The notes beneath the pieces were generated by a model. It did not search any database and was not told the DNA's origin. It saw only the letters and a program-made list of their open reading frames with translations. From NCBI GenBank assembly GCA_964406775.1, contig CAYOSW010000005.1, positions 1,362 to 65,361 of the forward strand: a DNA stretch of 64,000 bases, given 5' to 3'. Of the stretch, positions 42,860 to 63,660 are shown piece after piece (position 1 is the first letter of the stretch; each line of letters starts with the position of its first letter). Position numbers and translations under genes: made by a program. The stretch comes from an uncultured Gammaproteobacteria bacterium. GTDB lineage: Bacteria; Patescibacteriota; Microgenomatia; Daviesbacterales; UBA10151.

Positions 42860-43017
42860 TTGGATTACTATTGCGTTATGAACTCATCATTTAATGCGTA
42901 TTTCCCAAAACCTGCTTTCAGATCAAAAAAATCCCTTTTCACCGCTTCAATTTAATCCTATAATTATTATTCATTACTTGACATTCGGTTTGCTAAATTA
43001 TAATATTATGGGACATT

Positions 43018-43887
43018 ATGATTAGCCTTAAAGACGCACATCAGCAGTTCGTTGGCCATTTAAAGGGCAGAAACCGGGCTGCAGCTACAATTCTAGCTTA
43101 CGGTAAAGACATTGAGCAACTCATTAACTTTTTAGTTTCAAACGGAAGAGAGATGTCTGAGAGTGTTTTGACCGAAGATTTAAAGCTTTTTATGGATAAA
43201 TTGAGCAAGGAAAACTACACTCCTAAATCAATTTCCAGAAAAACCAATTCGACAAAAACTTTCTTTAAATTCTTAAAAACTTCAAATTTGATCCCGGATG
43301 ATCCGGCCAGATCCTTAGAACACCCTAAATTTGAGAATAAACCGCCGAGAATCTTATCCGAACTTGAATACCGGGCGTTAAGGGACGCTTCCCGCTCCGA
43401 TTTAAGAATGTTTGCGATCATCGAACTTTTCCTGCAAACCGGAATCAGAATCGGAGAACTTGCCAAACTTCAGGTTGGTGATGCGGATCTTGATTCCAGT
43501 TCACCTTCCCTGCACATCCGCCCGGAAGAAGGAACAGTCGAAAGAACCATTCCCTTGAATAAACCTGCAGTTGAATCCATCAGAAAATACTTACAGGTCA
43601 GACCTCAAACAGCAAACCTGGCACTGTTTGTCACCAAAACCGGAAAACCTTTACTTATAAGAAACATCAGAACCGCAATCGACAGATATTTCCGCCTTGC
43701 AGGTATTAAAGAGGCCAAAGTTAATGATTTAAGACACACCTGGATTGCTCATCACTTAAAGGCAGGAACTTCTCTGCTCTTAATTTCTAAATTGGCCGGA
43801 CATAAAAGAGTTTCTACTACCGAAAGATATTTACAATTCATTCAGGGAAAAACTACCGAAGGTAAAATCACCCTCGACGAACTCTAA
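43018..43887 (+). CDS. tyrosine recombinase, XerC/XerD-like
   Basis: 289 aa ORF with the catalytic signature R (GIRIGEL), LRHTWIAHHL (the H-x-x-R box) and TTERY (the Tyr nucleophile). Its size and N-terminal core-binding domain are typical of Xer recombinases. Confidence 0.85.
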   Translation: MISLKDAHQQFVGHLKGRNRAAATILAYGKDIEQLINFLVSNGREMSESVLTEDLKLFMDKLSKENYTPKSISRKTNSTKTFFKFLKTSNLIPDDPARSLEHPKFENKPPRILSELEYRALRDASRSDLRMFAIIELFLQTGIRIGELAKLQVGDADLDSSSPSLHIRPEEGTVERTIPLNKPAVESIRKYLQVRPQTANLALFVTKTGKPLLIRNIRTAIDRYFRLAGIKEAKVNDLRHTWIAHHLKAGTSLLLISKLAGHKRVSTTERYLQFIQGKTTEGKITLDEL

Positions 43888-43899
43888 ACCCACAAACTT

Positions 43900-44403
43900 A
43901 TGTCCAAAGATATAATCAGGCCTCCGATGCCGGAAAGAAGTGTTATTGTACCTGTAGAAAGCTTTGGTATGCTACGAAGAGAAGATTTGACACCAGCTTT
44001 CCACCTCTTTGAATACAGGTTTGCGCAACTTACTAGATATATCATTGGGCGTGACTACAAGGGACCTGCATTACCTGAAGGAGTTCAAGAAGTACACAGC
44101 AGAATCCTGGCAGCAGAGGATTCACTGACTCCTGATGGACAGCTCGTAGGATATGCAAAAGTAGGTTATCAAACTCATAATCCAAATGACAAATATTTAG
44201 GCATTGCTTTCGATGGCAAAAGGGGTGTTTTTGCTCAAGCTGAACCTCGATATACCCATCCTGATTTACCATCCGGAATAGATGCATATCATCCTGGATT
44301 TGAGTATTTAGAAATGAATTACTATCCAACCGGAAGTGAAGTTGATTTAGGTAAATTATTAGGAATCCAAGAGAGATTCCAGTGTTTTGTACCTAATCAA
44401 TGA
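43900..44403 (+). CDS. hypothetical protein
   Basis: 167 aa ORF directly downstream of the recombinase. No motif recognised. Confidence 0.4.
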   Translation: MSKDIIRPPMPERSVIVPVESFGMLRREDLTPAFHLFEYRFAQLTRYIIGRDYKGPALPEGVQEVHSRILAAEDSLTPDGQLVGYAKVGYQTHNPNDKYLGIAFDGKRGVFAQAEPRYTHPDLPSGIDAYHPGFEYLEMNYYPTGSEVDLGKLLGIQERFQCFVPNQ

Positions 44404-44894
44404 TTCAAGGTCATTAAAAGTTTATTGTATTCCTTGCTTATTTCCAGATCTTCAAATCCTAATTTTCTATAAAGGGCAACGGCCGGCTCGTTCTCAGGCG
44501 AAACCGAAAGCCAGAATTTCGGATGAGGGTGTTTTTTATATTCTTCCGAATCTTTAAAATCAGCCATAACCTCTTCCGTAAACGGAAGCGCCAATCCTTT
44601 TCCGCGCGCCTTACCGTACAAACGGATAGCAAATGAGATTCCGTATTCTGAAGGGCTCTCCCGGTTTAAATAAAGATCCAAGTCGTGGAACCAGATTATT
44701 CCCAGCAGATTATCTTCATCATCAACCAGAGTATAGTAACTAAGAATTTCTTTTGAGAATTCGTCGAAGCTTTCCCTATTTTTAAATCTCTTCGGATCGG
44801 ATGTATATTTTAATCCTTCGTCAGTTGCCGCGTAATTTATGAGTTGGGAAATCTGCTTATCGGTAATGCCTTTTTTAATTTTGTAATCTTCCAT
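44397..44894 (-). CDS. GNAT-family N-acetyltransferase
   Basis: 165 aa ORF with an acetyl-CoA-binding motif-A-like segment (RLYGKARGKGLA) and the C-terminal YRKLGF motif typical of GNATs. Confidence 0.6.
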   Translation of the reverse strand: MEDYKIKKGITDKQISQLINYAATDEGLKYTSDPKRFKNRESFDEFSKEILSYYTLVDDEDNLLGIIWFHDLDLYLNRESPSEYGISFAIRLYGKARGKGLALPFTEEVMADFKDSEEYKKHPHPKFWLSVSPENEPAVALYRKLGFEDLEISKEYNKLLMTLNH

Positions 44895-44953
44895 AAGATC
44901 TCCCCTCCATAACTTGTTTTGATATCACGCTTGCCGTAAAATATCAACATTCT

Positions 44954-45028
44954 GCGCGGATAGCTCAGCGGTAGAGCGGTTGTCTTATACACAATTGGTC
45001 CCAGGTTCAAATCCTGGTCCGCGCACCA
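44954..45028 (+). tRNA. tRNA-Ile with anticodon UAU
   Basis: Cloverleaf GCGCGGA-TA-GCTC-AGCGGTA-GAGC-G-GTTGT-CTTATAC-ACAAT-TGGTC-CCAGG-TTCAAAT-CCTGG-TCCGCGC-A-CCA. It has a 7-bp acceptor stem, U33 and A37 flanking anticodon TAT, and an encoded CCA. Confidence 0.8.
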
Positions 45029-45031
45029 AAT

Positions 45032-47398
45032 TTAAAGTCGTGCCCGTTCTGAAATATTTGCCTCAACCGCGGCCCGGTCTCTCCCGTATGTCAGCCTGGA
45101 TAGTTCGCGTATCGCCCGCCCGACTTCAGGACGGCGCATTTTTTGCCATTCCTCATAGGACGGGAATGTCGTGTCTACGGAGAAAGGATGAACGGGCTCT
45201 CCCTGCACCTGGGTTTTTACATAGATGTGGCGCGCTTCAATATTAACCAGATCCTGCTCATTAAAAGTAGGCGCAAACTCGTGCTGGAGGAAGTTGGCAT
45301 CGGTGACACCGACACGGAAAGCGATCACCGTACCGACGTTACCGAAAACGGCATTTTTTAACTCCTCGCCTATCTGACCTATAAATTGGTTAGCGACGGT
45401 TAAATTCAGCTTATATTTACGCGCCTCGGCCAAAATTTCAGCAAAAGTGTCGGTTGCGAAGTTTTGGAACTCATCAACGTACAGGAAAAAGTCGCGTCTT
45501 TGTTCCTGAGGAATATCGGTTCGGCTCATTGCAGCGGCTAAAATCTTCGGAACCAGAACCAGCCCTAAAAAGTTTGAATATTCATCCCCGATCCTCCCTT
45601 TTGATAAATTCACAATCAGAATCTTTCCCTGGTCCATAACCTGACGCAGATTGAACGAAGAGACAGATTGGCCGATGATATTTCTCATCATCATATTGGT
45701 AACAAACCGCCCGAACTTTGATACGTTATAATCCAAAATTTCCGATTTATGGAATTCTGCAGTTTGGGCAATCTGGTCGGTCCAATACCTGCGGACAACC
45801 GGATCCTGAACGTAGGGCAAAAGCTCCTTTACGAATTCCGGATCAGTCAAAACACGTACCACCTCAAGAAAAGTATTGCCGGGTTTACTCATACAGGTCA
45901 GCATCGCATTACGGACGTTATGCTCAAACCTCGGCCCGATAATACCGGTTTTATGAGGATCATAAAGCTTGTACATCAGTCCGATGATTGAAGCAACCAC
46001 AAAGTGTTTTTGCTCCTCGGTTGTGGCTTCAAGCATATTCAAACCGAAGGGGCGGGCAGAATCAGAGGGGTCAAAATAAATTACATCCTGGGCGCGGTTG
46101 GGCGGAATCCTCTCCAACATATCTTCCGCCGCATCTCCGTGGGGATCAATAAAACAAATACCCCGACCGGCATAAATATCCTGAATCATCATAGACTTTA
46201 AAAGCTCGGTTTTTCCGGTACCGGTTCTTCCGATGATATACATATGCCTTTGACGGTCAAAATCGGAAATAAACACCGGCCGTTCCTGACCCCGGAATTT
46301 CGATTTACCGATATAAAGACCTTTTGTCGGAATTTTTTCAGGAGGAGGGGCCGATTTGGCGGGAAGCCACTGAATATGCGGAGTTTCAACTTGTTTATTC
46401 GGTAAGTGGAAAAGCGAGGAAATCTCGTCCGCAGTTAAAACGGAAAGTTTATCAAATCTGGGTAGATATCTGTAAACAAAATCTCTGATAAAGCCTTTTT
46501 GTGAAGGAATTTTGGCTCCAGTAAAGCCGTTATACGGCCCGTTAAACTGCTCAAAAGCCGCTTTAATGTTGCCTAAATGAGCCTTAGCGGCTTCCTCCGA
46601 AGTCGAGGATGTAACAATCCGAACTATGGTTGAAAATCCGGCTTTAGTTATCTTTCCCTCGACTGCCTCAAGCTGTTTCTGATCCGGAGGAGCTTTCGGC
46701 TTCTCACCGTCTCCCGGATCGCGCTCCTTTTTCAGGAATTTCTTTCCCGAATTCTTAAAGTCATCGCCTGCAGGAGCTATAAGTAATTGAATTACCGCCC
46801 CTTCTCCCTGCTGCATTTTTCCGAGTGCTGAGGTAATACCTGATAACGGATCTGTCGGAAGCTCCTTATAAGTTTTTATCGGAAAATAATCGGAAGATTT
46901 AAGTTTGTAAGCGGTATAGGCAACCTTGCCGGTTTCCGAAAAAATATTATATTCAGGAACTTCTTTTACCGATGCGTCCGGATATGCTCCGTTGATTTGT
47001 TTTTCAATTAAATCCTGGTATTTTTTATGGCAGGCGACGTAAAATCTGATCGATTCCGGCAGCGCCACAATCTCAAAGGCAATATGAGGTTGGGGCTTTA
47101 AGTCCTTAAACATCCCCAAAAATCCTCCCGCTCCGATTTTTATGGAATACAGAGCTGAGATAAACTGCTCGGCCGCGTCAATTTTTACTTCATTGGCCTT
47201 AGGAACGGTAATTTGCAGCAGTACAAACCCCAATGAATATTTCTCCCGCTCCCGGTATTTATACAGATTCTTAAAATATGGATAAAAATATATCAAAAAA
47301 CCAATCAGAATGAGTGTTCCGAACAGGGCGACTAAAACCAAAACTGCAAAAAACAATAAGTCCGGTCCCTGAGCAACAGTAGTTTGAGTAACTTCCAT
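45032..47398 (-). CDS. membrane-anchored FtsK/HerA/TraD-superfamily P-loop ATPase (type IV coupling-protein-like)
   Basis: 788 aa ORF. Two N-terminal TM helices, Walker A HMYIIGRTGTGKTE and Walker B FFLYVDEFQNF. The architecture resembles VirD4/TraG/TraD coupling proteins. Family assignment is tentative. Confidence 0.5.
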   Translation of the reverse strand: MEVTQTTVAQGPDLLFFAVLVLVALFGTLILIGFLIYFYPYFKNLYKYREREKYSLGFVLLQITVPKANEVKIDAAEQFISALYSIKIGAGGFLGMFKDLKPQPHIAFEIVALPESIRFYVACHKKYQDLIEKQINGAYPDASVKEVPEYNIFSETGKVAYTAYKLKSSDYFPIKTYKELPTDPLSGITSALGKMQQGEGAVIQLLIAPAGDDFKNSGKKFLKKERDPGDGEKPKAPPDQKQLEAVEGKITKAGFSTIVRIVTSSTSEEAAKAHLGNIKAAFEQFNGPYNGFTGAKIPSQKGFIRDFVYRYLPRFDKLSVLTADEISSLFHLPNKQVETPHIQWLPAKSAPPPEKIPTKGLYIGKSKFRGQERPVFISDFDRQRHMYIIGRTGTGKTELLKSMMIQDIYAGRGICFIDPHGDAAEDMLERIPPNRAQDVIYFDPSDSARPFGLNMLEATTEEQKHFVVASIIGLMYKLYDPHKTGIIGPRFEHNVRNAMLTCMSKPGNTFLEVVRVLTDPEFVKELLPYVQDPVVRRYWTDQIAQTAEFHKSEILDYNVSKFGRFVTNMMMRNIIGQSVSSFNLRQVMDQGKILIVNLSKGRIGDEYSNFLGLVLVPKILAAAMSRTDIPQEQRRDFFLYVDEFQNFATDTFAEILAEARKYKLNLTVANQFIGQIGEELKNAVFGNVGTVIAFRVGVTDANFLQHEFAPTFNEQDLVNIEARHIYVKTQVQGEPVHPFSVDTTFPSYEEWQKMRRPEVGRAIRELSRLTYGRDRAAVEANISERARL

Positions 47399-47892: not shown

Positions 47893-48183
47893 CTAAGCAA
47901 GGTTAGGTAAAACACACACAACTCTTCCTAATATTCTTTTTCTTTCAATCCAGGGGTAAGACTTGGAGTCATTACTGTTATCCCCCTTTACTAAAATAAG
48001 CTTATTCTTAGCCTCCGCAACTCTTTTAACAATCACTTTATCCCCGTCTCTGAAGGCAATCAGGTGTCCTTTTTTTGGATTCAAAAATAAATAAGGCAAC
48101 CCCGTTACCAATATTTCCTGACCCGGATTTAGCACGGGCTGCATACTGTGACCGGAAACTTTAAAACGGGACAGAACGATCAT
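47893..48183 (-). CDS. sodX: S26-family signal-peptidase-like maturation protease for Ni-SOD (SodX-like)
   Basis: 96 aa ORF with SGHSMQP (the Ser nucleophile box) and VKRV (the Lys box) of the Ser/Lys dyad. Lies directly downstream of sodN, overlapping it by 4 nt. Confidence 0.65.
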   Translation of the reverse strand: MIVLSRFKVSGHSMQPVLNPGQEILVTGLPYLFLNPKKGHLIAFRDGDKVIVKRVAEAKNKLILVKGDNSNDSKSYPWIERKRILGRVVCVLPNLA

Positions 48184-48689
48184 TCACTTTCGTAAGTAAC
48201 AATCTCGCCCTCTGTGGGGTAGAGTGATTTAATTCTCTTTGGCGTTACTCCCTTGGATTTGTAAAATATTTCAGCAAATTCCTGCACTTTAGAAAGGAGC
48301 TGTCCTGCCGATTCTCTATCTATGTCCTGTTTGGCTTTTGACGCCAGTTTCATTATTTCAAAAACCAGTTGATGAAGTTCCGGGAACTTCTCCAGGTGTT
48401 CAGGCTTAAAGTAGTCGCCCCAGATTACCCTTACCTCGTATTTAATTTTTTCAGCGTGATCTTCTTTAGTCCGGGTAAGTCTGGCTATCTTATGCACATC
48501 TTCGCCGGCCTCGGACAATAAATCCGTCATTCTTATAACCGTATGTGCCGAAAGTTGAGCTTCGTGGGGGTCATATATTCCGCAGGGAATATCACAATGA
48601 GCGTAAATAGTACCTAACGGAAGAAATTTTATAATAAGACTTACAATCCGCATAGTTAAAAATATAACACTTCGCATCACATTAACCAA
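48180..48689 (-). CDS. sodN: nickel superoxide dismutase precursor
   Basis: 169 aa ORF. Leader peptide followed by HCDIPCGIYDP, the Ni-hook (His-Cys-x-x-Pro-Cys-Gly-x-Tyr). Also has conserved GDYFKPEHLEKFPELHQLV. Confidence 0.85.
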   Translation of the reverse strand: MVNVMRSVIFLTMRIVSLIIKFLPLGTIYAHCDIPCGIYDPHEAQLSAHTVIRMTDLLSEAGEDVHKIARLTRTKEDHAEKIKYEVRVIWGDYFKPEHLEKFPELHQLVFEIMKLASKAKQDIDRESAGQLLSKVQEFAEIFYKSKGVTPKRIKSLYPTEGEIVTYESE

Positions 48690-48694
48690 GGATG

Positions 48695-49639
48695 TTATTG
48701 AGTCTTATCCGTAACAGACTGGTTCTCGAGATAATGCTCGACCTCAAAAGTCGCTTTTGTTCCCGCACCGGCAGCTGTCACCGCCTGACGGTATTTAAAG
48801 TCGGATACATCACCCGCTATAAATATCCCGGGGACCGAACTGAGTACTTCATCGCGGACCTTTACGTAGCCTTTTTCATCCAAATCCAAATGTCCTTTCA
48901 GAAAATCCGTTGAAGGTTTGTGCCCGATGGCGATAAATACCGCATCAATCGGCATCTCGGAGACCTGCCCCGAAACCGTATCTTTAAGCTTTACACCCTT
49001 CACCATATCCTCCCCCAATACCTCCTCTATAACTTTATTGAAAAGGATTTCCACATTGGGCTTTGATTTAACCAGATCCACAAGGGCTTTTTGAGCACGG
49101 AACTGATCTCTACGGTGAACTACATAAAGTTTTCCGGCAATCTTCGAAAGATGCTGAGCCTCCCTCATCGCGGTATCACCCCCACCGACGACGATAATAT
49201 TTTTTCCTTTGAAGAAAAATCCGTCACAAACCGCGCAAGCTGAAACACCCCTACCGATTAATTTTTGTTCTGACGGAATCCCCAACCACATAGCACTTGC
49301 ACCTGTGGCAATAATCACGGTTTGGGTTTTTATCTGCTGGGTTTCAGTCTGAATTAGATATGGCTGTTTGGAGAAATCCACAGAAACAACATCCTCATTA
49401 ATAAATCTTGTGGCAAATCTTTCAGCCTGGGCGCGCATTTTTGTCATCAGCTCCGGACCCTGAATTCCATCGGGAAATCCGGGGAAATCATCAACATCCG
49501 TTGTTAACATAAGCTGTCCTCCGGCCGCTCTTCCGGCAACAACCAGCGGATTTAAACCGCCCCGCGCTGCATAAATTGAGGCTGTTAAACCTGCAGGGCC
49601 CGATCCGACAATAACAAGTTTTTCCACTCCCTCACTCAT
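48695..49639 (-). CDS. trxB: thioredoxin reductase
   Basis: 314 aa ORF with FAD motif VIVGSGPAGLTA, the redox-active CAVC, and NADPH motif VVGGGDTA. Confidence 0.93.
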   Translation of the reverse strand: MSEGVEKLVIVGSGPAGLTASIYAARGGLNPLVVAGRAAGGQLMLTTDVDDFPGFPDGIQGPELMTKMRAQAERFATRFINEDVVSVDFSKQPYLIQTETQQIKTQTVIIATGASAMWLGIPSEQKLIGRGVSACAVCDGFFFKGKNIIVVGGGDTAMREAQHLSKIAGKLYVVHRRDQFRAQKALVDLVKSKPNVEILFNKVIEEVLGEDMVKGVKLKDTVSGQVSEMPIDAVFIAIGHKPSTDFLKGHLDLDEKGYVKVRDEVLSSVPGIFIAGDVSDFKYRQAVTAAGAGTKATFEVEHYLENQSVTDKTQ

Positions 49640-55425: not shown

Positions 55426-55962
55426 ATGGAAATTGCTGTTTTTGCAGGAGGATGCTTTTGGTGCACCGAAGCGGTATTTAAAAGACTTAAAGGCGTTGAG
55501 GAAGTTGAATCCGGTTATTCAGGTGGACGGACGGAAAATCCTACTTACGAAGAAGTCTCATCAGGGGAAACAGGTCACGCTGAAGCGATACGGGTTAAGT
55601 TTGATCCCGAAATTATAACGTACGGACAACTTGTCGAAATTTTTCTTAAACTTCACGACCCTACAACACTAAATCAGCAAGGAGCCGATACCGGAGAACA
55701 GTACCGCTCAGCAATTTTCTATCTGAATGAAGCCCAAAAAGAAATTGCCGAAGAAACTGTGGATAAATTCAGCAAAGAAAAAATATATCCCGATCCGATC
55801 GTAACGGAAATCGTGCCTTTTGAAAAATTTTATAAAGCCGAAGGCTATCATCAGGATTACTACGAACAAAACCGGAATTCAAACGCTTACTGCAGAATAG
55901 TTATCGATCCGAAGATACAAAAACTTTACCGGGATTTTAAAGATCAAGTCCGCGAATTTTAA
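55426..55962 (+). CDS. msrA: peptide methionine-S-sulfoxide reductase
   Basis: 178 aa ORF with the catalytic GCFWC motif (FAGGCFWCTEAVF) and GYSGG...NPTYEEV..G.TGHAE. Confidence 0.9.
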   Translation: MEIAVFAGGCFWCTEAVFKRLKGVEEVESGYSGGRTENPTYEEVSSGETGHAEAIRVKFDPEIITYGQLVEIFLKLHDPTTLNQQGADTGEQYRSAIFYLNEAQKEIAEETVDKFSKEKIYPDPIVTEIVPFEKFYKAEGYHQDYYEQNRNSNAYCRIVIDPKIQKLYRDFKDQVREF

Positions 55963-57986
55963 AGATCGAGCACAACACCGGACTTTGCGGGATCCGCTTT
56001 TAAAATATAGACTTTCTCTCCGTTATTCTCAAAGTAGACATCCGTATTCACATAGAACAGCTCCGGTCTGCTTTTATAAACGTTATAAATAAGCTCTCCG
56101 ATATCTTTTTTTGACACTCCCGGCTCCGGCAGGAGATATCTAAATCTGCGGATCTTTACGCCTTTAATATCCTCCGCCTTTTTCTCTATTCCCTCTTCAA
56201 AATCTTTCAGTACTCCAACATATCTGGGATAATCATCCGGCACTGACTGCCTTACGGAATCTCCCACCTGCAATGAAGAATTCTTAATAGTTACATTTTC
56301 CAATTCATTCAGAGTTTTCGGCCACTCAATATGTCTGGTTATCATATAAACCGCTTTACCGTCTCCCGGTTTTGCAACAGCCACACCCCCCCGTCTAATC
56401 ATCGATAAAGGGATCTCTCCCTTTTCTATGATTATTTTTTTATCCGGGCTGTAGCCAGGCCATAAATAATCCCATTTCCAAACCAACATTGTTTGGTTAT
56501 TTACCTCCTTAAATTCAAAAACAGGGGCAAACCCCAATTCACCATACTGGGAATCGTATTTAATTCCATATCCGACATCGGTCAAGTCCCCTTTCCGTTT
56601 AATATCATTTATTTTGACTTCAATTTTTTTCACTCCCAAAGTTTCATAGAAACTTTCAAGGTCTGAAATAAATTTTTGTTCGGGAATTGTTTTTCTCTGA
56701 TCCGGATCTATGCTTCTGTAAAGTTCGCGGTAAGCTCTTTTTGCAATAAAGCTCCCCACTGCCTCAGAGTTTGAGTAATAATTTTTGGATGCCATACTGT
56801 TTGTTAAAAAAGGAAGGTTCAATAGTGCGATTATTACCAAGATAAACCAGTATTTTTCCCACCGTGAATTTTTTCCAAAAAAATAGGAGGCTGATAAAAC
56901 AAAACCCGGAATTGCCGGCATTAAATACCTGGGCCAAAATGAAAGGAAAGTGTTGACGATTAAAAATATTAAAGTCACACCCGAAATATAAATCCACATT
57001 TTCTCCTTCTTTTTTAAAGCCAAAATTAAAACTATTACTGTCGCTAGAACTCCTATAGGTAAAAGAGGAGACCAGTCTCCTAATGTAATTTTTCCTATAT
57101 CCCACCAGCCCTGATAACTGTTCATAAATATGCCTCTCCATTGATTCAGATGATCGATATTACTGTCGGGGCTTAAGTAAAAATCCAGCTGTTTTTGATG
57201 TAGTTTAACCCAAGGTATCGGATTCGGGTGTCTCGAGAAGTAAGCGATATACGAAAGACAGTAGCCGGCAAAAACAGAGCCTGCATAAAAGACAGGATTA
57301 AAAAGCTTATTTACTATTTTTTTACCGTCCCAGACAAGCAGCAATAATCCGAGTAAAAGTATCGGTGGAGTGTAAACTCCGATTTTTGTACCAGTCGCCA
57401 AACCCAAAAAAATTCCCCCTATAGCTAGCGAGAAAAGTTTTTTGTTCTTCAAGTGTTTTACAAAAAAATAAGCATTTGCCAAGAAGAAGCAGGTAACAGG
57501 CAAATCCAGCATCGTATCCCTGATCTGGGTCGCGATGAATGGCGTGGTTACAAATATGAGCTGTGCGGCCAGAACTGTCTTCTCACTCTTAATAAGCAGT
57601 TTTAAGAAGATATAGAAGATCCCAATCGTTGATAGATAAATTACCAAACTTATCAGATACGGATTCGAAAAATAATATTCTGCCAATCCGTACAGATATT
57701 TACCGAAAGGAGGAACTTCGTAGTTCAGATAAAAAGTATTCTCACCCTGAACCAATCGGTATCCGACAAACTTGTAAAGCATCCCGTCCGATATACCTCT
57801 TGTACTTCCGGGTATATTCCACTGGGAATGATAGTAAAGATTTTCATAATATTCCGGTTCATAAACAAAAAAGAAAATCTGTCTTGAGAAAAAAATCACA
57901 TAGGCAACAGTTATTAAAACCGCTGTTACAAGCAATATATGAATTGTTTTTGCGGAGTGGTTAAAAAATTTTTGAAGCGGAAACAT
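55959..57986 (-). CDS. GT-C fold glycosyltransferase (PMT/ArnT, GT39/GT83-like) with C-terminal extracytoplasmic domain
   Basis: 675 aa ORF with about 11 N-terminal TM helices and a roughly 250 aa soluble C-terminal domain. Family assignment rests on architecture only. Confidence 0.5.
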   Translation of the reverse strand: MFPLQKFFNHSAKTIHILLVTAVLITVAYVIFFSRQIFFFVYEPEYYENLYYHSQWNIPGSTRGISDGMLYKFVGYRLVQGENTFYLNYEVPPFGKYLYGLAEYYFSNPYLISLVIYLSTIGIFYIFLKLLIKSEKTVLAAQLIFVTTPFIATQIRDTMLDLPVTCFFLANAYFFVKHLKNKKLFSLAIGGIFLGLATGTKIGVYTPPILLLGLLLLVWDGKKIVNKLFNPVFYAGSVFAGYCLSYIAYFSRHPNPIPWVKLHQKQLDFYLSPDSNIDHLNQWRGIFMNSYQGWWDIGKITLGDWSPLLPIGVLATVIVLILALKKKEKMWIYISGVTLIFLIVNTFLSFWPRYLMPAIPGFVLSASYFFGKNSRWEKYWFILVIIALLNLPFLTNSMASKNYYSNSEAVGSFIAKRAYRELYRSIDPDQRKTIPEQKFISDLESFYETLGVKKIEVKINDIKRKGDLTDVGYGIKYDSQYGELGFAPVFEFKEVNNQTMLVWKWDYLWPGYSPDKKIIIEKGEIPLSMIRRGGVAVAKPGDGKAVYMITRHIEWPKTLNELENVTIKNSSLQVGDSVRQSVPDDYPRYVGVLKDFEEGIEKKAEDIKGVKIRRFRYLLPEPGVSKKDIGELIYNVYKSRPELFYVNTDVYFENNGEKVYILKADPAKSGVVLDL

Positions 57987-57995
57987 CCTTAAGAT

Positions 57996-60155
57996 TTAAT
58001 TCGAGTTTATCTCAAGAGTTATATTTTGGGGTAGTATTGGAAGTCTTAAAAACGGACTCGGCAAATGAGGTGTCACTTTTATATCCGCTCCTATTACGCT
58101 TTCATTTGACTTCAGAATTTCTTCGACTTTATCTGGTGTCTTAAATGTGATTTGAGATTTTAATTTATTAAGGTCAAGCTTAGGCATTAGCTTGGCCTTA
58201 AATTTAGCGGTAAATATTATTTTTCCGTCTTTTTCTACTTTAGAGACCGTCGCCTGAGTCTCGGTTCTTTGCAGATCTAAATCATAACCATCGGGAATAG
58301 TGGTCACAACAAGTTTTCCGACAATACTCTTCAGATCGGTGTCTGAATACGCTGTTCCTTTAAGATTCAAATTCAGAGTTAAAGAAAACTCGGATGCCTG
58401 GTCACCTGGATTTTTCGAGAATGATTGTTTTAAAACTTTTTCTATAAAAGTTTCTTCCAAAATCTTCATATCATCAGTAAGCTTTCCCTGCACTTCTTCC
58501 TGAGCTCTTTTTTTAAGATCTGAGGTTAAAGTTGCCAAAAGCTTCTTCTGATCTTCTGCAGTCACGACAGTTACATCTTTAGATATTCCTCCGGAAAAAG
58601 CCGTATCAACTTTCGCCGAATACTGGTCGGTTCCGAAACCTTTTATGGTCATCTCCTTTCCAGCAGCCAAATTCCCGTCAGGTCCTATGGTTGACGCAGT
58701 GGCACTCGCGGTTCCTTTACCGAAGGAGATCCCACCATCAACTGCGGATTGAGATGCGATATTAACACTAGTATCCAGAACAAAATTAAGATTACCGGGA
58801 CCGATAAGTACAGTCCCCTGAGAGAATGTCTTCGGTGATGCGGTTTTATTATAAATCACAACAGTTCCTTTGGCCGGATCACCGATTTGTTTTTTACCCG
58901 TAGCGGCGGCCTTACTGGTACCGTCTACTGTCGTTTCAACAACTCTGCCCGGGATTTGCTTATTAGCCTCATCCATTGCGGTAATTTTAGGATCAGCAAC
59001 TATCTGGGTCTCTTTTTCAAGGATTTTCGGATCAACAAACATTACTACTGTTGCTTTCGGCAGAAAAACATAGGCCCCGACCAGTACGATGAGAATTATA
59101 AGAGGCACTAAAAGAGTGAAACCGAACCCGCCTGCCAGCCTTAACGGATTAGGGAACCGGGAGAAAAAACCGCCGGTTGAAAACCCGTTTTTTATAGCTC
59201 CACCCATCTTTCTCGGCATATTCGTCTGATAGGCCTCAAGTTCAGTCCGGGCCGTCTGATCTTTTTGCATCTGCTCAATATCACCTTCAGCAAAAGCAGT
59301 CTCATATTTTTCCTCAACAGGAATATGCTTAACCGGCTGAGGCGTGTGTGGAACAGTCGGTGCAATTGGTACAGTCTGGTGATCAAGATGAATATGCGGA
59401 TTAATTTCGGATGCTCCGGCAAAACTCAAGCTTTTTATTTCAATATCTTTCTCGAGCTCCTCAACCTTAGGTAAATGAAGAAAAGGCAACTGTCCCATCC
59501 AATTAAAGGACACCATTTCCTCTCTATAGTGAGACAGCTCACCGCTACCAAAAATTAATATCTTCGCCGGCAATACTTCTATATCTCCGAAGGACAGGAG
59601 GGCTTTCTCTATATCTCTCGGAAGGTTATTCCCCCGGGGCTGGTCTTTTGTGCCTAAAATTTTCCCGGCCTTAACTACTGATATCGAAATCGGATCTCCG
59701 ACTTCGACGATTATCGCGGTCACCGGAACACCGTCCTGACGCTGAAGGTAGTGGCATACTGCGTGCATTGTCGCCACATAAGCCATCGGGACAACATCCA
59801 ACTCTTTGACAAGCTGTTTCAGGACTTTTGAATATTTAGGCTTTAGATCCTCATCCGCCAGCCAGGAATCCGGTACCCCGAAGAGTATCTTTTCAGGTTC
59901 AGGCTGAAAGTCTGCCAGGGCTTCATCAAGGGCTATATTGGCGGCTTCAATTAGGCTGTGGGGGCTTTCCGAAATATCTTCAGGCTCGTGAAATTTTCTT
60001 CTGGCTACGGAAACAATCTTCACTTTACCGCCTTGTATTCCCCAGACGCAACCTTCGGCAATTCCTGGTTTAATATTTAAGCCAAAGTAATATTCTTCCG
60101 GTACGCTTGATTTAGAAGCAGGCAAAAATTTAGACAGACTATCGAGTATAGACAT
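57996..60155 (-). CDS. FtsA/PilM-like actin-fold domain fused via a TM helix to a large extracytoplasmic domain
   Basis: 719 aa ORF. The N-terminus (YFGLNIKPGIAEGCVWGIQGGKVKIVSVARRK) resembles the first beta-hairpin of the FtsA/PilM ASKHA fold. A TM helix (GFGFTLLVPLIILIVLVGAYVFL) follows, then about 340 aa that are Thr/Lys/Gly-rich and beta-rich. Confidence 0.45.
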   Translation of the reverse strand: MSILDSLSKFLPASKSSVPEEYYFGLNIKPGIAEGCVWGIQGGKVKIVSVARRKFHEPEDISESPHSLIEAANIALDEALADFQPEPEKILFGVPDSWLADEDLKPKYSKVLKQLVKELDVVPMAYVATMHAVCHYLQRQDGVPVTAIIVEVGDPISISVVKAGKILGTKDQPRGNNLPRDIEKALLSFGDIEVLPAKILIFGSGELSHYREEMVSFNWMGQLPFLHLPKVEELEKDIEIKSLSFAGASEINPHIHLDHQTVPIAPTVPHTPQPVKHIPVEEKYETAFAEGDIEQMQKDQTARTELEAYQTNMPRKMGGAIKNGFSTGGFFSRFPNPLRLAGGFGFTLLVPLIILIVLVGAYVFLPKATVVMFVDPKILEKETQIVADPKITAMDEANKQIPGRVVETTVDGTSKAAATGKKQIGDPAKGTVVIYNKTASPKTFSQGTVLIGPGNLNFVLDTSVNIASQSAVDGGISFGKGTASATASTIGPDGNLAAGKEMTIKGFGTDQYSAKVDTAFSGGISKDVTVVTAEDQKKLLATLTSDLKKRAQEEVQGKLTDDMKILEETFIEKVLKQSFSKNPGDQASEFSLTLNLNLKGTAYSDTDLKSIVGKLVVTTIPDGYDLDLQRTETQATVSKVEKDGKIIFTAKFKAKLMPKLDLNKLKSQITFKTPDKVEEILKSNESVIGADIKVTPHLPSPFLRLPILPQNITLEINSN

Positions 60156-60209: not shown

Positions 60210-62066
60210 TTAAGCCAGCTCTGCCCTGATTCTGCGGATACCCGCCGAAATAGCCTCCTCTTTCGTGATTTTCAGACCTTTAATGATTCCTGTCTTCTCA
60301 ACGTGTGGACCGCCGCAAAATTCCAGAGAATAATAACTCCCCCTTTCGCGCTTATCTTTACTTGTCGGTTCCACAGCATAGTCAGGACCGATACAGTAAA
60401 TAGAGACATTAGACTTATCGTATTTTTCATCAAATAGTCCTATGGCATTCATAGATTTCGCTTCCTCAAAGGTCATATATTTGCGCTCAACCTTTAAATC
60501 TTCCGCAATTTTTTCGTTTACCAGCTCCTCCACCTCCCTTAACTCCTCATCAGTCATTTTTCTGTCGAATGAGAAATCAAACCTCAATCTTTCCGTTGTA
60601 ATATTCGAGCCTTTCTGAAAGACCTCAGGTCCCAGAACGTCACGCAGGGCCTGATGTAGGAGGTGAGTCGCCGTGTGGTATTTTGTTTCTATTTCGGAAT
60701 GCCCGGCTAATCCTCCGGCAAATTTTCCCACGGAAGCAGTCCGTGAAAGATCCCTGTGTTTTTTAAATTCATCCTCAAAATCAGCCTTATTGAGGGTCTG
60801 TCCTTTTTGACGTACCAACTCAATCGTCAGCTCGAGAGGAAATCCAAAGGTTTGATATAAATCAAATGCGGCTTTCCCGTCAATATTTTTAAGTTTGCCT
60901 ACCTCTTTTAGTCCTTTATCAAGCGATTTTCCGAATTTTTCCATCTCTTCAACAATCACTCTGACAACCAGTTCCCTTTGGGACTTTTCATTAATGCCGA
61001 ATAAGCCGTCATAAATTAATAAAACAGCATCTGCGCAGGCCGCTTCAAAAGCATCAGTAGGAATTTCTCCTTTATTAACCTTCCCGCGCAATTCGTGCAT
61101 CTTCACCGCTACGCGTCTTATAAGGCGGCGCAATACATAACCCTGCATCTTATTGGAAGGGAGGACCCCGGAAACAATTAAAAATGTTGCCGCTTTCAAG
61201 TGATCCGCAATAATCCGGATATTCGGCTTTGATTCATTCTGTGAATAATTTTTGCCTGAGTATTTTTCAATAAGCTTAATTACTGGCAGATATAAATCGG
61301 TATTAAAAATATCGGGATCGTCATTTGCTGCAGCCGCAAGGCGTTCGAGCCCTCCACCGAAGTCCACATTTTTTTGAGACAATTCCTCAAATTCCCCATC
61401 TCCGGTTTTTTTATACTGAATAAAAACTGAATTAGCAATTTCAGAGAATCTTCCGCACTCACAGTTGGGATGACATTTTTCTCCAAAAGCTGGGTCGTGT
61501 TTGACGGATTCGAACTCATAAAAAACCTCAGAATCCGGACCCCCAATTTCACCCACAGGCATTTTATCGGGCGTTCCCGACTTTGACCACCAGTTTTTTG
61601 AAACCCCGTATTCAAAAATCCGCTCTTCCGGAATCCCCAAACTTTTCCAAATCTCCCGACTCTCCTCGTCCTTCGGAACGAACTCATTTCCTTCAAAAAC
61701 AGTCACATACATTCTCTCTTTAATTAGCCCGAGCTCTTCCGTTAAAAATTCCCATATCCAGGATAATTGTTCTTTTTTAAAGTAGTCGCCCAGTGACCAG
61801 TTTCCGAGCATTTCAAAAGCAGTGGTATGACGGTTATCACCGACTTCTTCAATATCCTCGGCGCGGAAAGATGGTTGCGAGTTTACCAGGCGCACACCCC
61901 CTGGATGCTTCTCCCCCAACAAAAACGGCACTAGAGGCTGCATTCCTGATGAAGTAAAAAGCGTCGTCGGGTCATTCTCCAAAACCAGTTTTGCCGGTTC
62001 AATTTCTTGATGTCCCCGTTTAACGAAAAATGAAATGTATTTTTGGCGGATATCCCTGCTTGTCAT
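60210..62066 (-). CDS. alaS: alanine--tRNA ligase, compact form lacking the C-Ala domain
   Basis: 618 aa ORF with class II motifs (RHTTAFEMLGNWSLGDYFK), the editing-domain HTATHLLH and CGGPHV. No C-terminal C-Ala domain. Confidence 0.85.
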   Translation of the reverse strand: MTSRDIRQKYISFFVKRGHQEIEPAKLVLENDPTTLFTSSGMQPLVPFLLGEKHPGGVRLVNSQPSFRAEDIEEVGDNRHTTAFEMLGNWSLGDYFKKEQLSWIWEFLTEELGLIKERMYVTVFEGNEFVPKDEESREIWKSLGIPEERIFEYGVSKNWWSKSGTPDKMPVGEIGGPDSEVFYEFESVKHDPAFGEKCHPNCECGRFSEIANSVFIQYKKTGDGEFEELSQKNVDFGGGLERLAAAANDDPDIFNTDLYLPVIKLIEKYSGKNYSQNESKPNIRIIADHLKAATFLIVSGVLPSNKMQGYVLRRLIRRVAVKMHELRGKVNKGEIPTDAFEAACADAVLLIYDGLFGINEKSQRELVVRVIVEEMEKFGKSLDKGLKEVGKLKNIDGKAAFDLYQTFGFPLELTIELVRQKGQTLNKADFEDEFKKHRDLSRTASVGKFAGGLAGHSEIETKYHTATHLLHQALRDVLGPEVFQKGSNITTERLRFDFSFDRKMTDEELREVEELVNEKIAEDLKVERKYMTFEEAKSMNAIGLFDEKYDKSNVSIYCIGPDYAVEPTSKDKRERGSYYSLEFCGGPHVEKTGIIKGLKITKEEAISAGIRRIRAELA

Positions 62067-62436: not shown

Positions 62437-63075
62437 TTATTTTTTGATATAAACAGTTCTGTCTATTTTGGTTGACTGTCCGAATTTTGAGGTCGCAACA
62501 ACGGAGATATTGTTTACGGAGGAAGAAAGCTTAACTTCTTCCTTAAAATTCCCCGCCGTATCTGTACCTATTTCCTGATCATTTACAAAAACTTTGGTTT
62601 CAGGATCAGTTGAACCCTCAATAAGGACAGACGTTGCTTCCACAGTTTGGCCTTGCGACGGGCTGGAAAGATCTAGTTTAGGAGAGCCAACGAACTGTCT
62701 ATATTCAAACCAAAGATAGGCAAAAAAAACCAATACTACCACAGCAATAACAACCCCCACTAACCGCGAAGGAGTTATCAGAATCCTTTTCCTGCTCATC
62801 GGTTTTGATAAGCTTTCCAAAATTACAGGAGGATGCTTTTTAGACTCAAAATCCCGTCTTAGAATCGCCATCAGTTTACCGGCTTCCAGCCCTAAAAACT
62901 TACCGTAATTTTTGACAAACCCCTGAATAAAAGTTAAGGGCGGCAGCTTAGCGTAATCATCTTCCTCAAGAGCTTTAAGCAACTCCTTCCTGATCTTGGT
63001 GTGTTTTTCCACCTCTTCCAGAGTATATAGCTTCGCTTCTCTTGTTTCTTTAAGTAGTTGACCGATTGTCCTCAT
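62437..63075 (-). CDS. RodZ-like cytoskeleton protein (XRE HTH, TM, C-terminal domain)
   Basis: 212 aa ORF with an N-terminal HTH (TIGQLLKETREAKLYTLEEVEKHTKIRKELLKALE), one TM helix and a periplasmic C-terminal domain. Confidence 0.6.
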   Translation of the reverse strand: MRTIGQLLKETREAKLYTLEEVEKHTKIRKELLKALEEDDYAKLPPLTFIQGFVKNYGKFLGLEAGKLMAILRRDFESKKHPPVILESLSKPMSRKRILITPSRLVGVVIAVVVLVFFAYLWFEYRQFVGSPKLDLSSPSQGQTVEATSVLIEGSTDPETKVFVNDQEIGTDTAGNFKEEVKLSSSVNNISVVATSKFGQSTKIDRTVYIKK

Positions 63076-63102: not shown

Positions 63103-63660
63103 TTGCTTGCCAAAGGCTATCTGAATATAATATGGCCAATGTCCGATACGAATCAAACTAACCCTCCCAAAGGGGATTTCGATAAAGCCGATAAGTATAT
63201 TAACCAGCTTGCAGAGCTGATAAATCAAAAAAGAATTGAGGTTTTTCATACCGACTTAAAAAAATTTGATCCTACAACACTCCAGGACCACTATACGATA
63301 AAACTCCAAGATTACCAGATAGAAATCAGTCATAGTAAACAGCCGAATACCGGTAAAGACTCATTTGTAATGATTTTTAACAACTTTAAAAACTTAAGCG
63401 ATGGTAATGGTGCGAAGGCAATTTTAGCTTATATATATCTTGCCGACTCCCATTTCTCCAAGTTTAAAATCGTTGCAGACAGGCAGATTGAAGACAGAAG
63501 AAGGGCAGAAGAAGAAAAAAGATTTAAAGAAGCTTTGGCCCCTATCGATAATTTACTAAGTCAGGCCCAGACACTGCCAGATTCCTCAGCGACTCAAAAA
63601 ACTGCCCCTGCCTCCCCCCAGCTTCTTTCCTTTGACAACCAATCCACACTGCTCGACTAA
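63103..63660 (+). CDS. hypothetical protein
   Basis: 185 aa ORF with no recognisable motif. Charged, helix-prone C-terminal half. Confidence 0.35.
   Translation: MLAKGYLNIIWPMSDTNQTNPPKGDFDKADKYINQLAELINQKRIEVFHTDLKKFDPTTLQDHYTIKLQDYQIEISHSKQPNTGKDSFVMIFNNFKNLSDGNGAKAILAYIYLADSHFSKFKIVADRQIEDRRRAEEEKRFKEALAPIDNLLSQAQTLPDSSATQKTAPASPQLLSFDNQSTLLD

Follow-up and report, generated by a model that had tools for sequence, protein, structure and literature searches.

GspL and PilM-PilN combine a cytoplasmic actin-like domain, one transmembrane (TM) helix, and an outer domain. FtsA has two subdomains, 1C and 2B, which are its contacts for late divisome proteins and FtsZ. The baseplate wedge J proteins oligomerize into ring or platform assemblies in phages and in related injection machines. 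Here we describe a large family of bacterial proteins that resembles each of these in part: a small actin-like (ASKHA) domain in the cytoplasm is joined by a TM helix to an ectodomain related to baseplate wedge J proteins, and the gene is usually followed by a sortase gene.

A large family in Microgenomates

The window (the whole stretch of 64,000 nucleotides that we analyzed) encodes a 719-residue protein and a 675-residue protein on the same strand, with 9 nucleotides between their open reading frames (Table 1). Both are in the ORF list at the positions given by an earlier, sequence-only reading of this DNA.

We found 562 homologs of the 719-residue protein, and all of the named ones are annotated as "hypothetical." A profile search gave 1,936 clusters (at 50% identity) with E ≤ 1e-30 and 8,534 representatives with E ≤ 1e-3. 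The family is present in at least six Microgenomates lineages (Daviesbacteria, Shapirobacteria, Gottesmanbacteria, Amesbacteria, Chisholmbacteria, and Beckwithbacteria). No relative was found among the 2.9 million viral contigs in IMG/VR, and PADLOC gave no match. Overall, this is a large, uncharacterized, housekeeping family that is vertically inherited in Microgenomates.

As judged from the AF2 model (mean pLDDT 80), which we used to set the domain limits, and from hydropathy, the 719-residue protein consists of an N-terminal peptide, a minimal ASKHA domain, a linker of about 90 residues, one TM helix, and an ectodomain of 354 residues. The N-terminal peptide is modeled as a low-confidence helix (pLDDT of about 50). 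Across the family, the linker varies in sequence and in length (34 to 189 residues, with a median of 107), and it is rich in glutamate, lysine, and proline. It contains a short linear motif whose phenylalanine (Phe288) is kept in 95% of 331 sequences; the flanking parts of the linker are not conserved. The single membrane crossing that was proposed earlier is borne out: AF2 predicts a helix at residues 346-364, and, apart from the folded core, the sole strongly hydrophobic segment is at residues 347-365 (with a Kyte-Doolittle score of 2.83). The protein ends in ...RLPILPQNITLEINSN, without a hydrophobic tail or an LPXTG-like sorting signal.

There had been a concern that the reading frame might be an artificial fusion of two genes. 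The same order of N-domain, TM helix, and ectodomain recurs in over 300 non-identical sequences from independent assemblies, with identities down to about 27%, so the fusion is not an assembly artifact.

Table 1. Features of the locus, with positions in the window.
Feature	Residues	Position	Strand	Basis
Family gene (719-aa ASKHA-TM-baseplate-J-like protein)		57996..60155	(-)	ORF list, ATG start
Conserved N-terminal short peptide, MSxLDxLxKxLPF	1-19	60099..60155	(-)	Family alignment and conservation profile
Cytoplasmic minimal ASKHA domain	20-255	59391..60098	(-)	AF2 pLDDT >90
Most conserved family motif, W219-x5-F-L-H227-x-P229-K230, in a lobe II loop		59466..59501	(-)	331-sequence alignment
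Disordered cytoplasmic linker	256-345	59121..59390	(-)	AF2 pLDDT <50 for residues 268-345
Linear motif AFAEGDI (family consensus GFxxGD) in linker	287-293	59277..59297	(-)	Conservation profile
Single TM helix	346-365	59061..59120	(-)	AF2 helix 346-364 and Kyte-Doolittle
Extracytoplasmic baseplate-wedge (gpJ/gp6/gp47)-like domain	366-719	57999..59060	(-)	Foldseek PDB and BFVD
Core barrel segment with Baseplate_J sequence similarity	423-523	58587..58889	(-)	Pfam PF04865, PHROG 6
Gene for 675-aa protein		55959..57986	(-)	ORF list, ATG start
GT-C (PMT_2/GT39-type) polytopic glycosyltransferase domain	1-400	56787..57986	(-)	Pfam PMT_2, PMT
PBP2a-type N-terminal module (MecA_N NTF2-like and pedestal/allosteric domain)	401-675	55962..56786	(-)	Profile match, Foldseek
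alaS, upstream neighbor of family gene		60210..62066	(-)	Pfam tRNA-synt_2c
rodZ-like gene (HTH_25, TM, Ig-like domain), upstream		62437..63075	(-)	Pfam and NCBIfam RodZ N-terminal region
ruvX		38864..39259	(-)	tblastn, Pfam RuvX
mltG/YceG		37847..38845	(-)	tblastn, Pfam YceG

A minimal actin-like domain that is probably a scaffold

The sequence-only reading had described the N-terminal domain as FtsA/PilM-like. The actin-like fold is confirmed. In the AF2 model, about 236 residues form two beta-beta-beta-alpha-beta-alpha-beta-alpha lobes around an RNase-H-like core, and in a Foldseek search of the PDB the best match is PilM (5eoy; E = 1.6e-7, probability 1.0). The closer kinship to PilM or FtsA did not hold up. 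After PilM come ROK kinases, PPX/GppA, CoaX, and FtsA; FtsA and other ASKHA proteins likewise reach a probability of 1.0, and as fold matches, the ROK kinases, PPX, and CoaX are statistically indistinguishable from PilM. The model has no 1C/SHS2 insert between beta3 and alpha1 and no 2B in lobe II. No Pfam or NCBIfam model, including those for PilM and FtsA, matches this domain at E ≤ 1, nor does any match the N-domains of 37 relatives at E ≤ 0.1. The only PDB match of the N-domain profile at the sequence level is to the phosphate-1 strand of FtsA from S. aureus, and it is marginal (E = 0.007).

We then examined the nucleotide-binding motifs in 331 sequences. (The equivalent positions were taken from the marginal FtsA HMM alignment and from the positions of the strands in the model, not from a structural superposition.) At the position equivalent to phosphate-1 (residue 27), the family has Asn in 146 sequences, Glu in 70, Gln in 17, and Leu in 17; Asp is found in only 15 of the 331. 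The position equivalent to phosphate-2 (residue 151) is Gly in 125 sequences, Glu in 82, and another residue, such as Asn or Lys, in the rest. The glycine-rich loops, or the glycine positions that follow, are variable as well. Because neither the acidic nor the glycine-rich motifs are conserved, the N-domain is probably a scaffold rather than an ATPase, as far as its sequence indicates. The proposal that it is an actin-like ATPase is therefore unlikely, although it may bind nucleotides in a non-canonical way.

The strongest conservation in the family is elsewhere, in a loop of lobe II (Table 1). His227 and Pro229 are present in all 331 sequences, Phe225 in 330, and Trp219 in 328. Used as a peptide pattern, this motif retrieved 154 loci from GTDB.

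The ectodomain is related to baseplate wedge J proteins

The ectodomain is, as had been noted from its sequence, large, rich in threonine, lysine, and glycine (10.5%, 11.6%, and 7.3%, respectively), and rich in beta strands (AF2 pLDDT of 80-93). The suggestion that it resembles the outer part of PilM-PilN or FtsA-FtsQ-like chimeras has to be replaced. Pfam's PilN, PilO, and T2SSL models do not match the 719-residue protein or any of 37 relatives. Instead, Foldseek matches the ectodomain to baseplate proteins in the PDB from phage XM1 (7kh1_A5, E = 4e-7), cyanophage A-1(L) (8kea), and the diffocin triplex (8v3w). These matches (E of about 1e-7, probability 1.0) extend over about 340-360 columns, which is nearly the whole length of minimal J proteins. 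In BFVD, about 20 predicted viral "Baseplate J like" proteins match over about 350 columns. The TM-scores of the baseplate matches are low (0.17-0.23, with an rmsd of 24-40 Å) because the relative arrangement of the domains differs.

For the core barrel, there is similarity in sequence as well, at varying strength. Baseplate_J (PF04865) matches 31 of 37 family members weakly (E ≤ 0.1), and three of them (P0113, P0149, and P0220) exceed its gathering cutoff of 21.1 bits. The 719-residue protein itself falls below Pfam's reporting level for PF04865 and matches PHROG 6, "baseplate wedge subunit," with E = 8e-5; the best PHROG 6 score in the family is E = 4.6e-8. We conclude that the ectodomain is a relative of phage baseplate wedge J proteins and is not PilN/PilO/FtsQ-like. 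An ancient phage origin of the ectodomain is likely.

The present-day gene as a part of a phage or tailocin is a separate question, and this idea is essentially refuted by the housekeeping context, the lack of viral relatives, and the fusion to an ASKHA domain.

The adjacent GT-C protein

That the next gene encodes a GT-C glycosyltransferase with about 11 TM helices was predicted correctly. The 675-residue protein exceeds the Pfam gathering cutoffs for PMT_2 (30.4 versus 26.1 bits) and PMT (29.3 versus 22.7 bits), its AF2 model (pTM 0.85) has about 11-13 TM helices, and NCBI names the homologs "glycosyltransferase family 39 protein." Two loop residues, Asp67 and Asp161, are invariant.

The C-terminal 290 or so residues are a PBP2a-type module, which the sequence-only reading had missed. 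The family profile matches PBP2a (E = 6e-16), PBP3 from B. subtilis (E = 7e-15), and PBP5 from E. faecium (E = 7e-11). The profile aligns only with the N-terminal 180-265 residues of the PBP chains, and the matches as a whole reach no further than about residues 265-320. The best 50 PDB matches of the model in Foldseek are PBPs only, all on the C-terminal module over about 310 columns, and none are GT-C proteins; B. subtilis PBP3 matches this module with E = 8e-11. The transpeptidase domain (SxxK) is absent: nothing follows the module, and residue 675 is the last of the chain.

One suggested check was whether the GT-C gene and the family gene co-occur across genomes, and its outcome was negative. 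Of 87 loci, just 3 have the GT-C gene directly 3' of the family gene, and these are from the window's own subclade; a sortase takes this place in 64 of 77 loci. More distant GT-C homologs in Microgenomates are found within GT2/GT4/PMT_2 glycan clusters, away from the family gene. The GT-C gene is thus a late arrival beside the family gene, in a small clade of Daviesbacteria only. To judge by sequence, its product is a separate cell-envelope glycosyltransferase.

A conserved array with a sortase

The family gene (X) lies in a conserved array, rnj-ftsK...rodZ-like-small TM-alaS-X-sortase-ruvX-mltG...rpoBC. The gene immediately upstream (position -1) is alaS in 68 of 83 loci, and the rodZ-like cluster is found in 62 of 87 loci. 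Both ftsK and the rodZ-like gene are several genes upstream of the family gene, with alaS in between. In other lineages, the family gene is followed directly by the sortase, ruvX, and mltG. In the window, these ancestral downstream neighbors ruvX and mltG are displaced by about 18.7 kb, and the intervening DNA holds an integrase, a VirD4-like gene, and two tRNAs.

The sortase gene is the most tightly coupled neighbor. Among 70 junctions between the family gene and the sortase gene, 46 are 3 nucleotides or less, including 22 ATGA and 6 GTGA overlaps. Because this adjacency is seen in all deep clades, it is ancestral. The neighboring sortase retains the catalytic His, Cys, and Arg and passes the TIGR01076 model. 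In two clades, one of 10 loci and the window's own, the family gene has no sortase next to it, and no sortase was detected within the 64-kb window. So, any dependence on a sortase is not mirrored in gene order everywhere. A caveat is that the adjacency could be a frozen ancestral order inside a housekeeping array. Also, a search for LPXTG-like cell-wall sorting signals in the window and among the ORFs of 88 loci gave only 6 matches, all implausible.

The statement that the locus has no pilus or division genes around it was correct in part. None of the 87 family neighborhoods contain pil, gsp, or ftsQAZ genes. But a rodZ-like gene is in the window, and ftsK and mltG belong to the ancestral array. 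There are also no tail or baseplate genes (gpW/gp25, gpI/gp7, spike, tube, or sheath) in these 87 neighborhoods.

Possible functions

The reading that we favor, tentatively and at a little under an even chance, is that the 719-residue protein is a housekeeping, bitopic, trans-envelope scaffold that works with the sortase. The outer domain, whose likely ancestors are the wedge J proteins of phage baseplates, would oligomerize into a platform at the membrane's outer surface. This platform could position or organize the co-translated sortase and, through it, the anchoring of surface proteins to the wall. On the inside, the long disordered linker, with its short conserved motif, would tether the actin-fold domain to the membrane, and the actin-fold hub and the linker motif might bring in or detect a partner in the cytoplasm where the envelope is growing. 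In the small Daviesbacteria clade, where sortase-ruvX-mltG was displaced by about 18.7 kb, the GT-C gene was moved beside the family gene.

A related alternative is that the protein is an adaptor for the divisome or elongasome, that is, an FtsA/ZipA-like tether that links an FtsZ or MreB filament directly to peptidoglycan remodeling, with the sortase as a mere neighbor. Its membrane anchor would have turned into a TM helix that runs on to a wall-facing domain. The order of actin fold, flexible linker, and membrane anchor is that of FtsA, which is also the sole sequence-level match in the PDB. The conserved motif in the linker and the presence of ftsK, the rodZ-like gene, and mltG in the conserved neighborhood fit this idea as well. 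However, the protein lacks 1C and 2B, which are FtsA's sites for late divisome proteins and FtsZ, and its nucleotide motifs are gone. Furthermore, ftsK and the rodZ-like gene are several genes away, beyond alaS, and the tightest coupling, with overlapping start and stop codons, is to the sortase. We consider an adaptor role unlikely. It is very unlikely that the protein is a GspL/PilM-PilN-type alignment component of a type IV pilus, a competence system, or a type II secretion-like machine, even though PilM is the top structural match and the architecture matches GspL and the PilM-PilN fusion. Type IV pili are widespread in the CPR (PMC6744442), which also counts in favor. But one complete genome from Microgenomates carries a PilM of its own within a single type IV pilus locus (PMC7143001). 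Moreover, pil or gsp genes are in 0 of 87 neighborhoods, the ectodomain is baseplate-J-like with no match to PilN, PilO, or T2SSL in Pfam, and PilM does no better than ROK kinases, PPX, or CoaX in the fold search.

The original proposal was that an actin-like ATPase, a surface domain, and a glycosyltransferase form a module that assembles or glycosylates a surface structure. The actin fold, the TM helix, the ectodomain, and the GT-C neighbor all stand, while the ATPase motifs and the co-occurrence do not. The two genes share a strand, lie 9 nucleotides apart, and have no terminator-like site between them; both products act in the envelope; the pair persists in the nearest relatives (with identities of 97%, 70%, and 66%); and in that clade, several contigs are apparently common to the family's matches and the GT-C matches. 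On the other hand, one relative at 70% identity (L005) lacks the adjacency, which is a derived state found in 3 of 87 loci, and other GT-C homologs from Microgenomates belong to GT2/GT4/PMT_2 clusters at a great distance from the family gene. With the ATPase motifs unconserved, we view such a module as very unlikely. Finally, the relationship of the ectodomain to baseplate wedge J proteins might suggest a remnant or component of the baseplate of a prophage, a tailocin, or a contractile injection system. This is exceedingly improbable, as other tail or baseplate genes are absent nearby, the gene has a fixed chromosomal site amid housekeeping genes in several candidate phyla, there is no relative in IMG/VR, and the protein carries a membrane anchor and a fused ASKHA domain.

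A bolder form of the sortase-linked scaffold is that Microgenomates have a lineage-defining trans-envelope machine, in which a domesticated baseplate-wedge ring or platform at the surface, an actin-fold hub that is free of nucleotide and tethered by the linker and TM helix, and a dedicated sortase together build or position a surface structure, such as a wall-anchored fiber, an S-layer, or a host-contact site. This is possible but rather unlikely. Such a machine, if real, would represent a new type of assembly platform associated with a sortase, with the first housekeeping baseplate J domain in cells outside of phage-tail-like systems.

Comparison with known systems

The fold of the ectodomain is like that of baseplate J proteins (P2 gpJ, Mu gp47, T4 gp6, and XkdT; PF04865 and PHROG 6) over nearly the full length of minimal J proteins, and the barrel is similar to theirs in sequence, above the Pfam cutoff in some family members. 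Unlike them, the family's domain is cellular, chromosomal, housekeeping, membrane-anchored, and outside the cell. It also lacks their partners (gpI/gp7, gpW/gp25, spike, tube, and sheath) and is absent from viral contigs.

The 675-residue protein shares the PMT_2/PMT match and the polytopic layout of PMT/ArnT-type GT-C proteins, and it shares the MecA_N and pedestal/allosteric region of class B PBPs of the PBP2a subclass, but without a transpeptidase. We found this combination of a GT-C domain and a PBP2a-type module in no solved or named protein. By analogy only, a GT-C domain with a bPBP pedestal may resemble the SEDS-bPBP pairs.

The family shares an ASKHA core of two RNase-H-like lobes with PilM and FtsA. 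A flexible linker and a membrane anchor come after the actin fold, an order that FtsA also has, but in the family the anchor is a genuine TM helix leading into the 354-residue ectodomain. The N-domain is about 110-150 residues smaller than PilM or FtsA, without 1C/SHS2 and 2B. Also, its nucleotide motifs are not conserved, the HMMs for those families are silent, and there is no pil or dcw gene context.

With GspL and PilM-PilN, the family shares the logic of a trans-membrane scaffold, with an actin-like domain in the cytoplasm that is probably non-catalytic, one TM helix, and an outer domain. However, its linker is long and disordered, its outer domain is baseplate-J-like rather than ferredoxin-like as in PilN, PilO, or GspL, and its genomic partner is a sortase instead of a secretion ATPase or pilins.

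Architecture of the 719-aa protein

We found that the 719-aa protein (ASKHA-J, encoded by what we call the family gene) is bitopic, with a degenerate actin-fold hub inside the cell and a baseplate-wedge-like domain outside. The sequence-only reading had described a 719-aa protein and a downstream GT-C gene here, and both open reading frames (719 and 675 aa) are present. An AF2 model from a 37-sequence alignment has a mean pLDDT of 80. In this model, a conserved yet poorly ordered N-terminal peptide (residues 1-19) is followed by an alpha/beta domain (residues 20-255, pLDDT >90) made of two consecutive beta-beta-beta-alpha-beta-alpha-beta-alpha units, and then by a disordered stretch (residues 268-345). 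A single helix (residues 346-364) is the sole strong hydrophobic segment of the protein (KD 2.83), and it leads into a beta-rich domain (residues 366-719, pLDDT 80-93). By composition, this ectodomain is rich in Lys and Thr, as previously noted. A signal peptide is absent, and a folded region of 345 residues at the N-terminus precedes the membrane segment; we therefore infer an N-in/C-out topology. A PDB search with the 719-aa protein as a single sequence gave no match.

Features of the window discussed in the text (window positions)
Feature	Position	Strand	Remark
mltG	37847..38845		18.7 kb from the family gene
ruvX	38864..39259		18.7 kb from the family gene
345-aa ORF	39523..40560	-	immediately upstream of ruvX; no Pfam match
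tRNA-Met(CAU)	42414..42486		inside the 18.7-kb stretch
Tyrosine integrase	43018..43887		inside the 18.7-kb stretch
tRNA-Ile(UAU)	44954..45028	+	inside the 18.7-kb stretch
VirD4/TraG-like coupling protein	45032..47398		inside the 18.7-kb stretch
Nickel superoxide dismutase (Sod_Ni) and adjoining thioredoxin-reductase-like flavoprotein	48180..49639	-	
GT-C ORF, 675 aa	55959..57986	-	9 nt downstream of the family gene
PBP2a-type module of the GT-C protein	55962..56786	-	aa 401-675
Family gene, 719 aa	57996..60155	-	ATG start
Linker motif GFxxGD	59277..59297	-	
N-terminal peptide LDxLxKxLPF	60099..60155	-	
alaS	60210..62066	-	upstream of the family gene
Small TM protein, 89 aa	62143..62412	-	beside the rodZ-like gene; cluster in 46/87 loci
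rodZ-like HTH_25/TM gene	62437..63075	-	upstream of the family gene
185-aa protein	63103..63660	+	beside the rodZ-like gene; in 21 loci

The N-terminal domain

Foldseek comparison of the N-terminal domain to the PDB returned ASKHA proteins with a probability of 1.0. PilM from P. aeruginosa was the top match (E = 1.6e-7), followed at near-equal E-values by N-acetylmannosamine and ROK kinases, PPX/GppA, the type III pantothenate kinase CoaX, and FtsA. (By target-normalised TM-score, the small CoaX comes out best, at 0.51-0.53.) Neither in the window protein nor in 37 relatives is this domain matched by a Pfam or NCBIfam model. A profile built from 22 diverse N-terminal domains gave one marginal PDB sequence match, to S. 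aureus FtsA (E = 0.007), and in that alignment the first beta-hairpin corresponds to the phosphate-1 strand. The AF2 model shows a minimal core, about 236 aa long, in which the 1C/SHS2 and 2B subdomains are missing. The ASKHA superfamily can be assigned with confidence; the narrower "FtsA/PilM" label of the sequence-only reading cannot.

That reading also proposed an actin-like ATPase. Among 331 non-identical family sequences, the equivalent of the phosphate-1 Asp is Asn in 146, Glu in 70, Gln in 17, Leu in 17, and Asp in just 15; the equivalent of the phosphate-2 Asp is Gly in 125, Glu in 82, Asn in 25, or another residue; and the neighbouring Gly positions vary. This lack of conservation argues against ATPase activity. 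Essentially invariant, on the other hand, is a loop in lobe II, W219-x5-F-L-H227-x-P229-K230, with H227 and P229 present in 331/331 sequences. Most probably, the domain serves as an interaction hub that does not depend on nucleotide, instead of acting as an ATPase. (We infer this, because the correspondence of the motifs is alignment-based.)

Two short conserved motifs lie outside the folded domains. The disordered linker differs in length across the family, at 34 to 189 aa (median 107), and its GFxxGD motif includes F288, which is 95% conserved. The other is the N-terminal peptide, LDxLxKxLPF. The N-terminal "INLLP" peptide of PilN binds PilM, and the family's peptide may loosely resemble it.

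The ectodomain

The ectodomain had been likened to PilN or FtsQ, and instead it resembles baseplate J. The Pfam family Baseplate_J is matched weakly by 31 of 37 relatives; when eight relatives were tested singly, three exceeded the gathering cut-off of 21.1 bits, over the stretch equivalent to residues 423-523. The PHROG 6 profile ("baseplate wedge subunit") matches the window protein with E = 8e-5 and relatives with E-values down to 4.6e-8. Foldseek matched the ectodomain to solved baseplate wedge proteins from phage XM1 (7kh1_A5), cyanophage A-1(L) (8kea), and the diffocin triplex (8v3w). In BFVD, about 20 matches are named Baseplate J-like, XkdT/gp47-like, or baseplate wedge, and they align over about 340-360 columns, which is almost the full length of minimal J proteins. 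The baseplate matches have low TM-scores and high rmsd, as expected of elongated multidomain proteins whose domain angles differ. We saw no PilN, PilO, GspL, or POTRA signal in the window protein or in 37 relatives (Pfam).

A core gene of Microgenomates

A profile search of 1.84 billion representatives found 8,534 family members at E <= 1e-3 and 1,936 at E <= 1e-30. Among the best 150 matches, most span the whole profile, and the alignments to the window protein cover both domains, down to about 27% identity. All of the named members are called "hypothetical protein". Candidatus Daviesbacteria and further Microgenomates (CPR) are the source of the homologues. By scanning GTDB species genomes with the FLHxPK motif, we confirmed 154 loci and kept 80, which carry Davies-, Shapiro-, Gottesman-, Ames-, Chisholmbacteria, or Microgenomates labels; there is also one family member from Beckwithbacteria.

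We tabulated gene order for 87 loci, in which ORFs were called and then clustered by BLAST. Relative to the family gene, alaS is at position -1 (68/83 loci), a sortase at +1 (66/84), ruvX at +2 (56/81), and mltG/YceG at +3 (45/77). Further upstream are the rodZ-like gene, the small TM protein, ftsK, and RNase J, and further downstream are rpoB and rpoC. The genes for the 89-aa and 185-aa proteins belong to the same conserved array, and neither has a family match. The family occupies a fixed housekeeping position in at least six Microgenomates candidate phyla, and it is a core, vertically inherited gene there. We rejected prophage and defence roles, as a scan of IMG/VR viral contigs for relatives and PADLOC on the family were both negative.

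Many GTDB TPA MAGs with the array are titled "uncultured Gammaproteobacteria bacterium" (loci L010, L011, and L013, among others), and one record with this Microgenomates-specific array is titled "Bathyarchaeia archaeon". These titles are evidently placeholders or wrong.

Coupling to a sortase

Where the sequence continues for 1.5 kb or more downstream, a sortase directly follows the family gene in 64 of 77 loci. The junction is 3 nt or less in 46/70, including 22 ATGA and 6 GTGA overlaps. The adjacent sortase retains the catalytic His, Cys, and Arg and passes TIGR01076, with classes C and E the nearest. Distance clustering of the family proteins places sortase adjacency in every deep clade. 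It is lost in two groups only: ten Daviesbacteria loci, in which ruvX directly follows the family gene, and the window's own clade. These gene arrangements show that translational coupling to the sortase is ancestral, in an array where genes for the envelope and for division are found as well. Sortases were reported to be near-ubiquitous in Microgenomates and patchy in other CPR (PMC6744442), which matches the distribution of our family.

Could the family protein or a neighbour be a sortase substrate? We rejected this, as canonical sorting signals in the window and all loci gave only six matches, all implausible. No sortase is detectable in the 64-kb window by tblastn or six-frame HMM search. 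The 345-aa ORF lies where most relatives have the sortase, and by HMM it is not one. In close relatives, the family gene is followed by one (cluster 30) whose product is a secreted GDSL-like hydrolase rather than a degenerate sortase.

Broken synteny and the GT-C gene

The DNA between ruvX and the family gene in the window includes metabolic and redox genes. The segment at 42414..47398 is possibly a mobile element whose integration disrupted the shared gene order of the family gene, ruvX, and mltG. (In most bacteria, AUA is read by a lysidine-modified CAU tRNA, not by a UAU tRNA-Ile.) The Sod_Ni region looks like an oxidative-stress island in a CPR genome; in a relative with 97% identity, a signal-peptidase-like gene follows the pair and is possibly the SodN maturation protease. 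Locus L089 (97% identity) keeps the ancestral upstream side (rnj-ftsK-...-rodZ-like-small TM-alaS), with the GT-C gene after the family gene.

The GT-C assignment itself stands: the protein scores above the Pfam PMT_2 and PMT cut-offs, NCBI names its homologues "glycosyltransferase family 39 protein", and a 65.5-kb NCBI contig has a match with 100% identity. Its structural model is confident (pLDDT 89, pTM 0.85). The C-terminal 290 residues are homologous to the non-penicillin-binding N-terminal half of PBP2a, B. subtilis PBP3, and E. faecium PBP5 (profile E = 6e-16; Foldseek E = 8e-11). This half comprises the MecA_N NTF2-like domain and the pedestal/allosteric domain, and there is no transpeptidase domain. 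The GT-C/PBP-N architecture forms a Microgenomates family of its own (about 600-700 aa), whose genes usually lie within GT2/GT4/PMT_2 clusters. By analogy, it resembles a SEDS-bPBP pair joined in one chain.

The GT-C gene had been proposed as a partner of the actin-like protein in a surface-assembly module. Of the 87 clustered loci, only the window, L007, and L008 have this gene after the family gene, and L089 has it there as well; the two genes therefore came together recently and in one clade, and they are not a conserved module. At L005 (70% identity), a different PMT_2 gene lies on the opposite strand. More distant GT-C/PBP-N members are found in GT2, GT4, and further PMT_2 clusters, away from the ASKHA-J gene. 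In the window, the two genes are probably co-transcribed. (A promoter/terminator scan did no better than on shuffled sequence.)

Possible role of the family

A large part of bacterial diversity belongs to the CPR/Patescibacteria, whose envelopes and structures for host contact are not well understood. With about 2,000 clusters at 50% identity, annotated solely as "hypothetical", this family is very large, and it is unusual in joining an actin fold to a phage baseplate domain across the membrane, in its sortase coupling, and in its fixed housekeeping position. We found no description of it in the literature searched. The proteins of the CPR "Pam" pilus preprint (10.64898/2026.03.03.709456) are unrelated. 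Each domain is from a known superfamily; what is new is the baseplate-J ectodomain, the sortase partnership, and the housekeeping synteny. That the family is a truly new envelope machine strikes us as rather unlikely. The GT-C/PBP-N fusion is a second unusual envelope enzyme and is worth study.

Because J/gp6-type proteins oligomerise into rings and platforms in phage baseplates, the ectodomain may assemble into a platform on the cell surface and so organise both the sortase and the attachment of surface proteins. Inside the cell, the hub and the linker motif may tie this platform to a cytoplasmic partner. If so, the family would offer a concrete handle on surface-protein anchoring in monoderm ultrasmall bacteria, and it would clearly exemplify how a structural domain of phages can be domesticated for core cell biology.

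The main rival to this scaffold is that the protein is an FtsA/ZipA-like tether of the divisome or elongasome. These two readings are not mutually exclusive. A component of the GspL/PilMN type is disfavoured, because none of the 87 neighbourhoods contains a pilus gene, the ectodomain differs, and a complete Microgenomates genome has a separate PilM, which sits inside its T4P locus (PMC7143001). Overall, the actin-like fold, the topology, and the glycosyltransferase of the sequence-only reading survive, and the ATPase activity, the PilN/FtsQ-like ectodomain, and the GT-C module do not. As for the scaffold we propose, its plan is a familiar one: GspL and PilM-PilN have the same logic of an actin-like domain, a transmembrane segment, and an outer domain.
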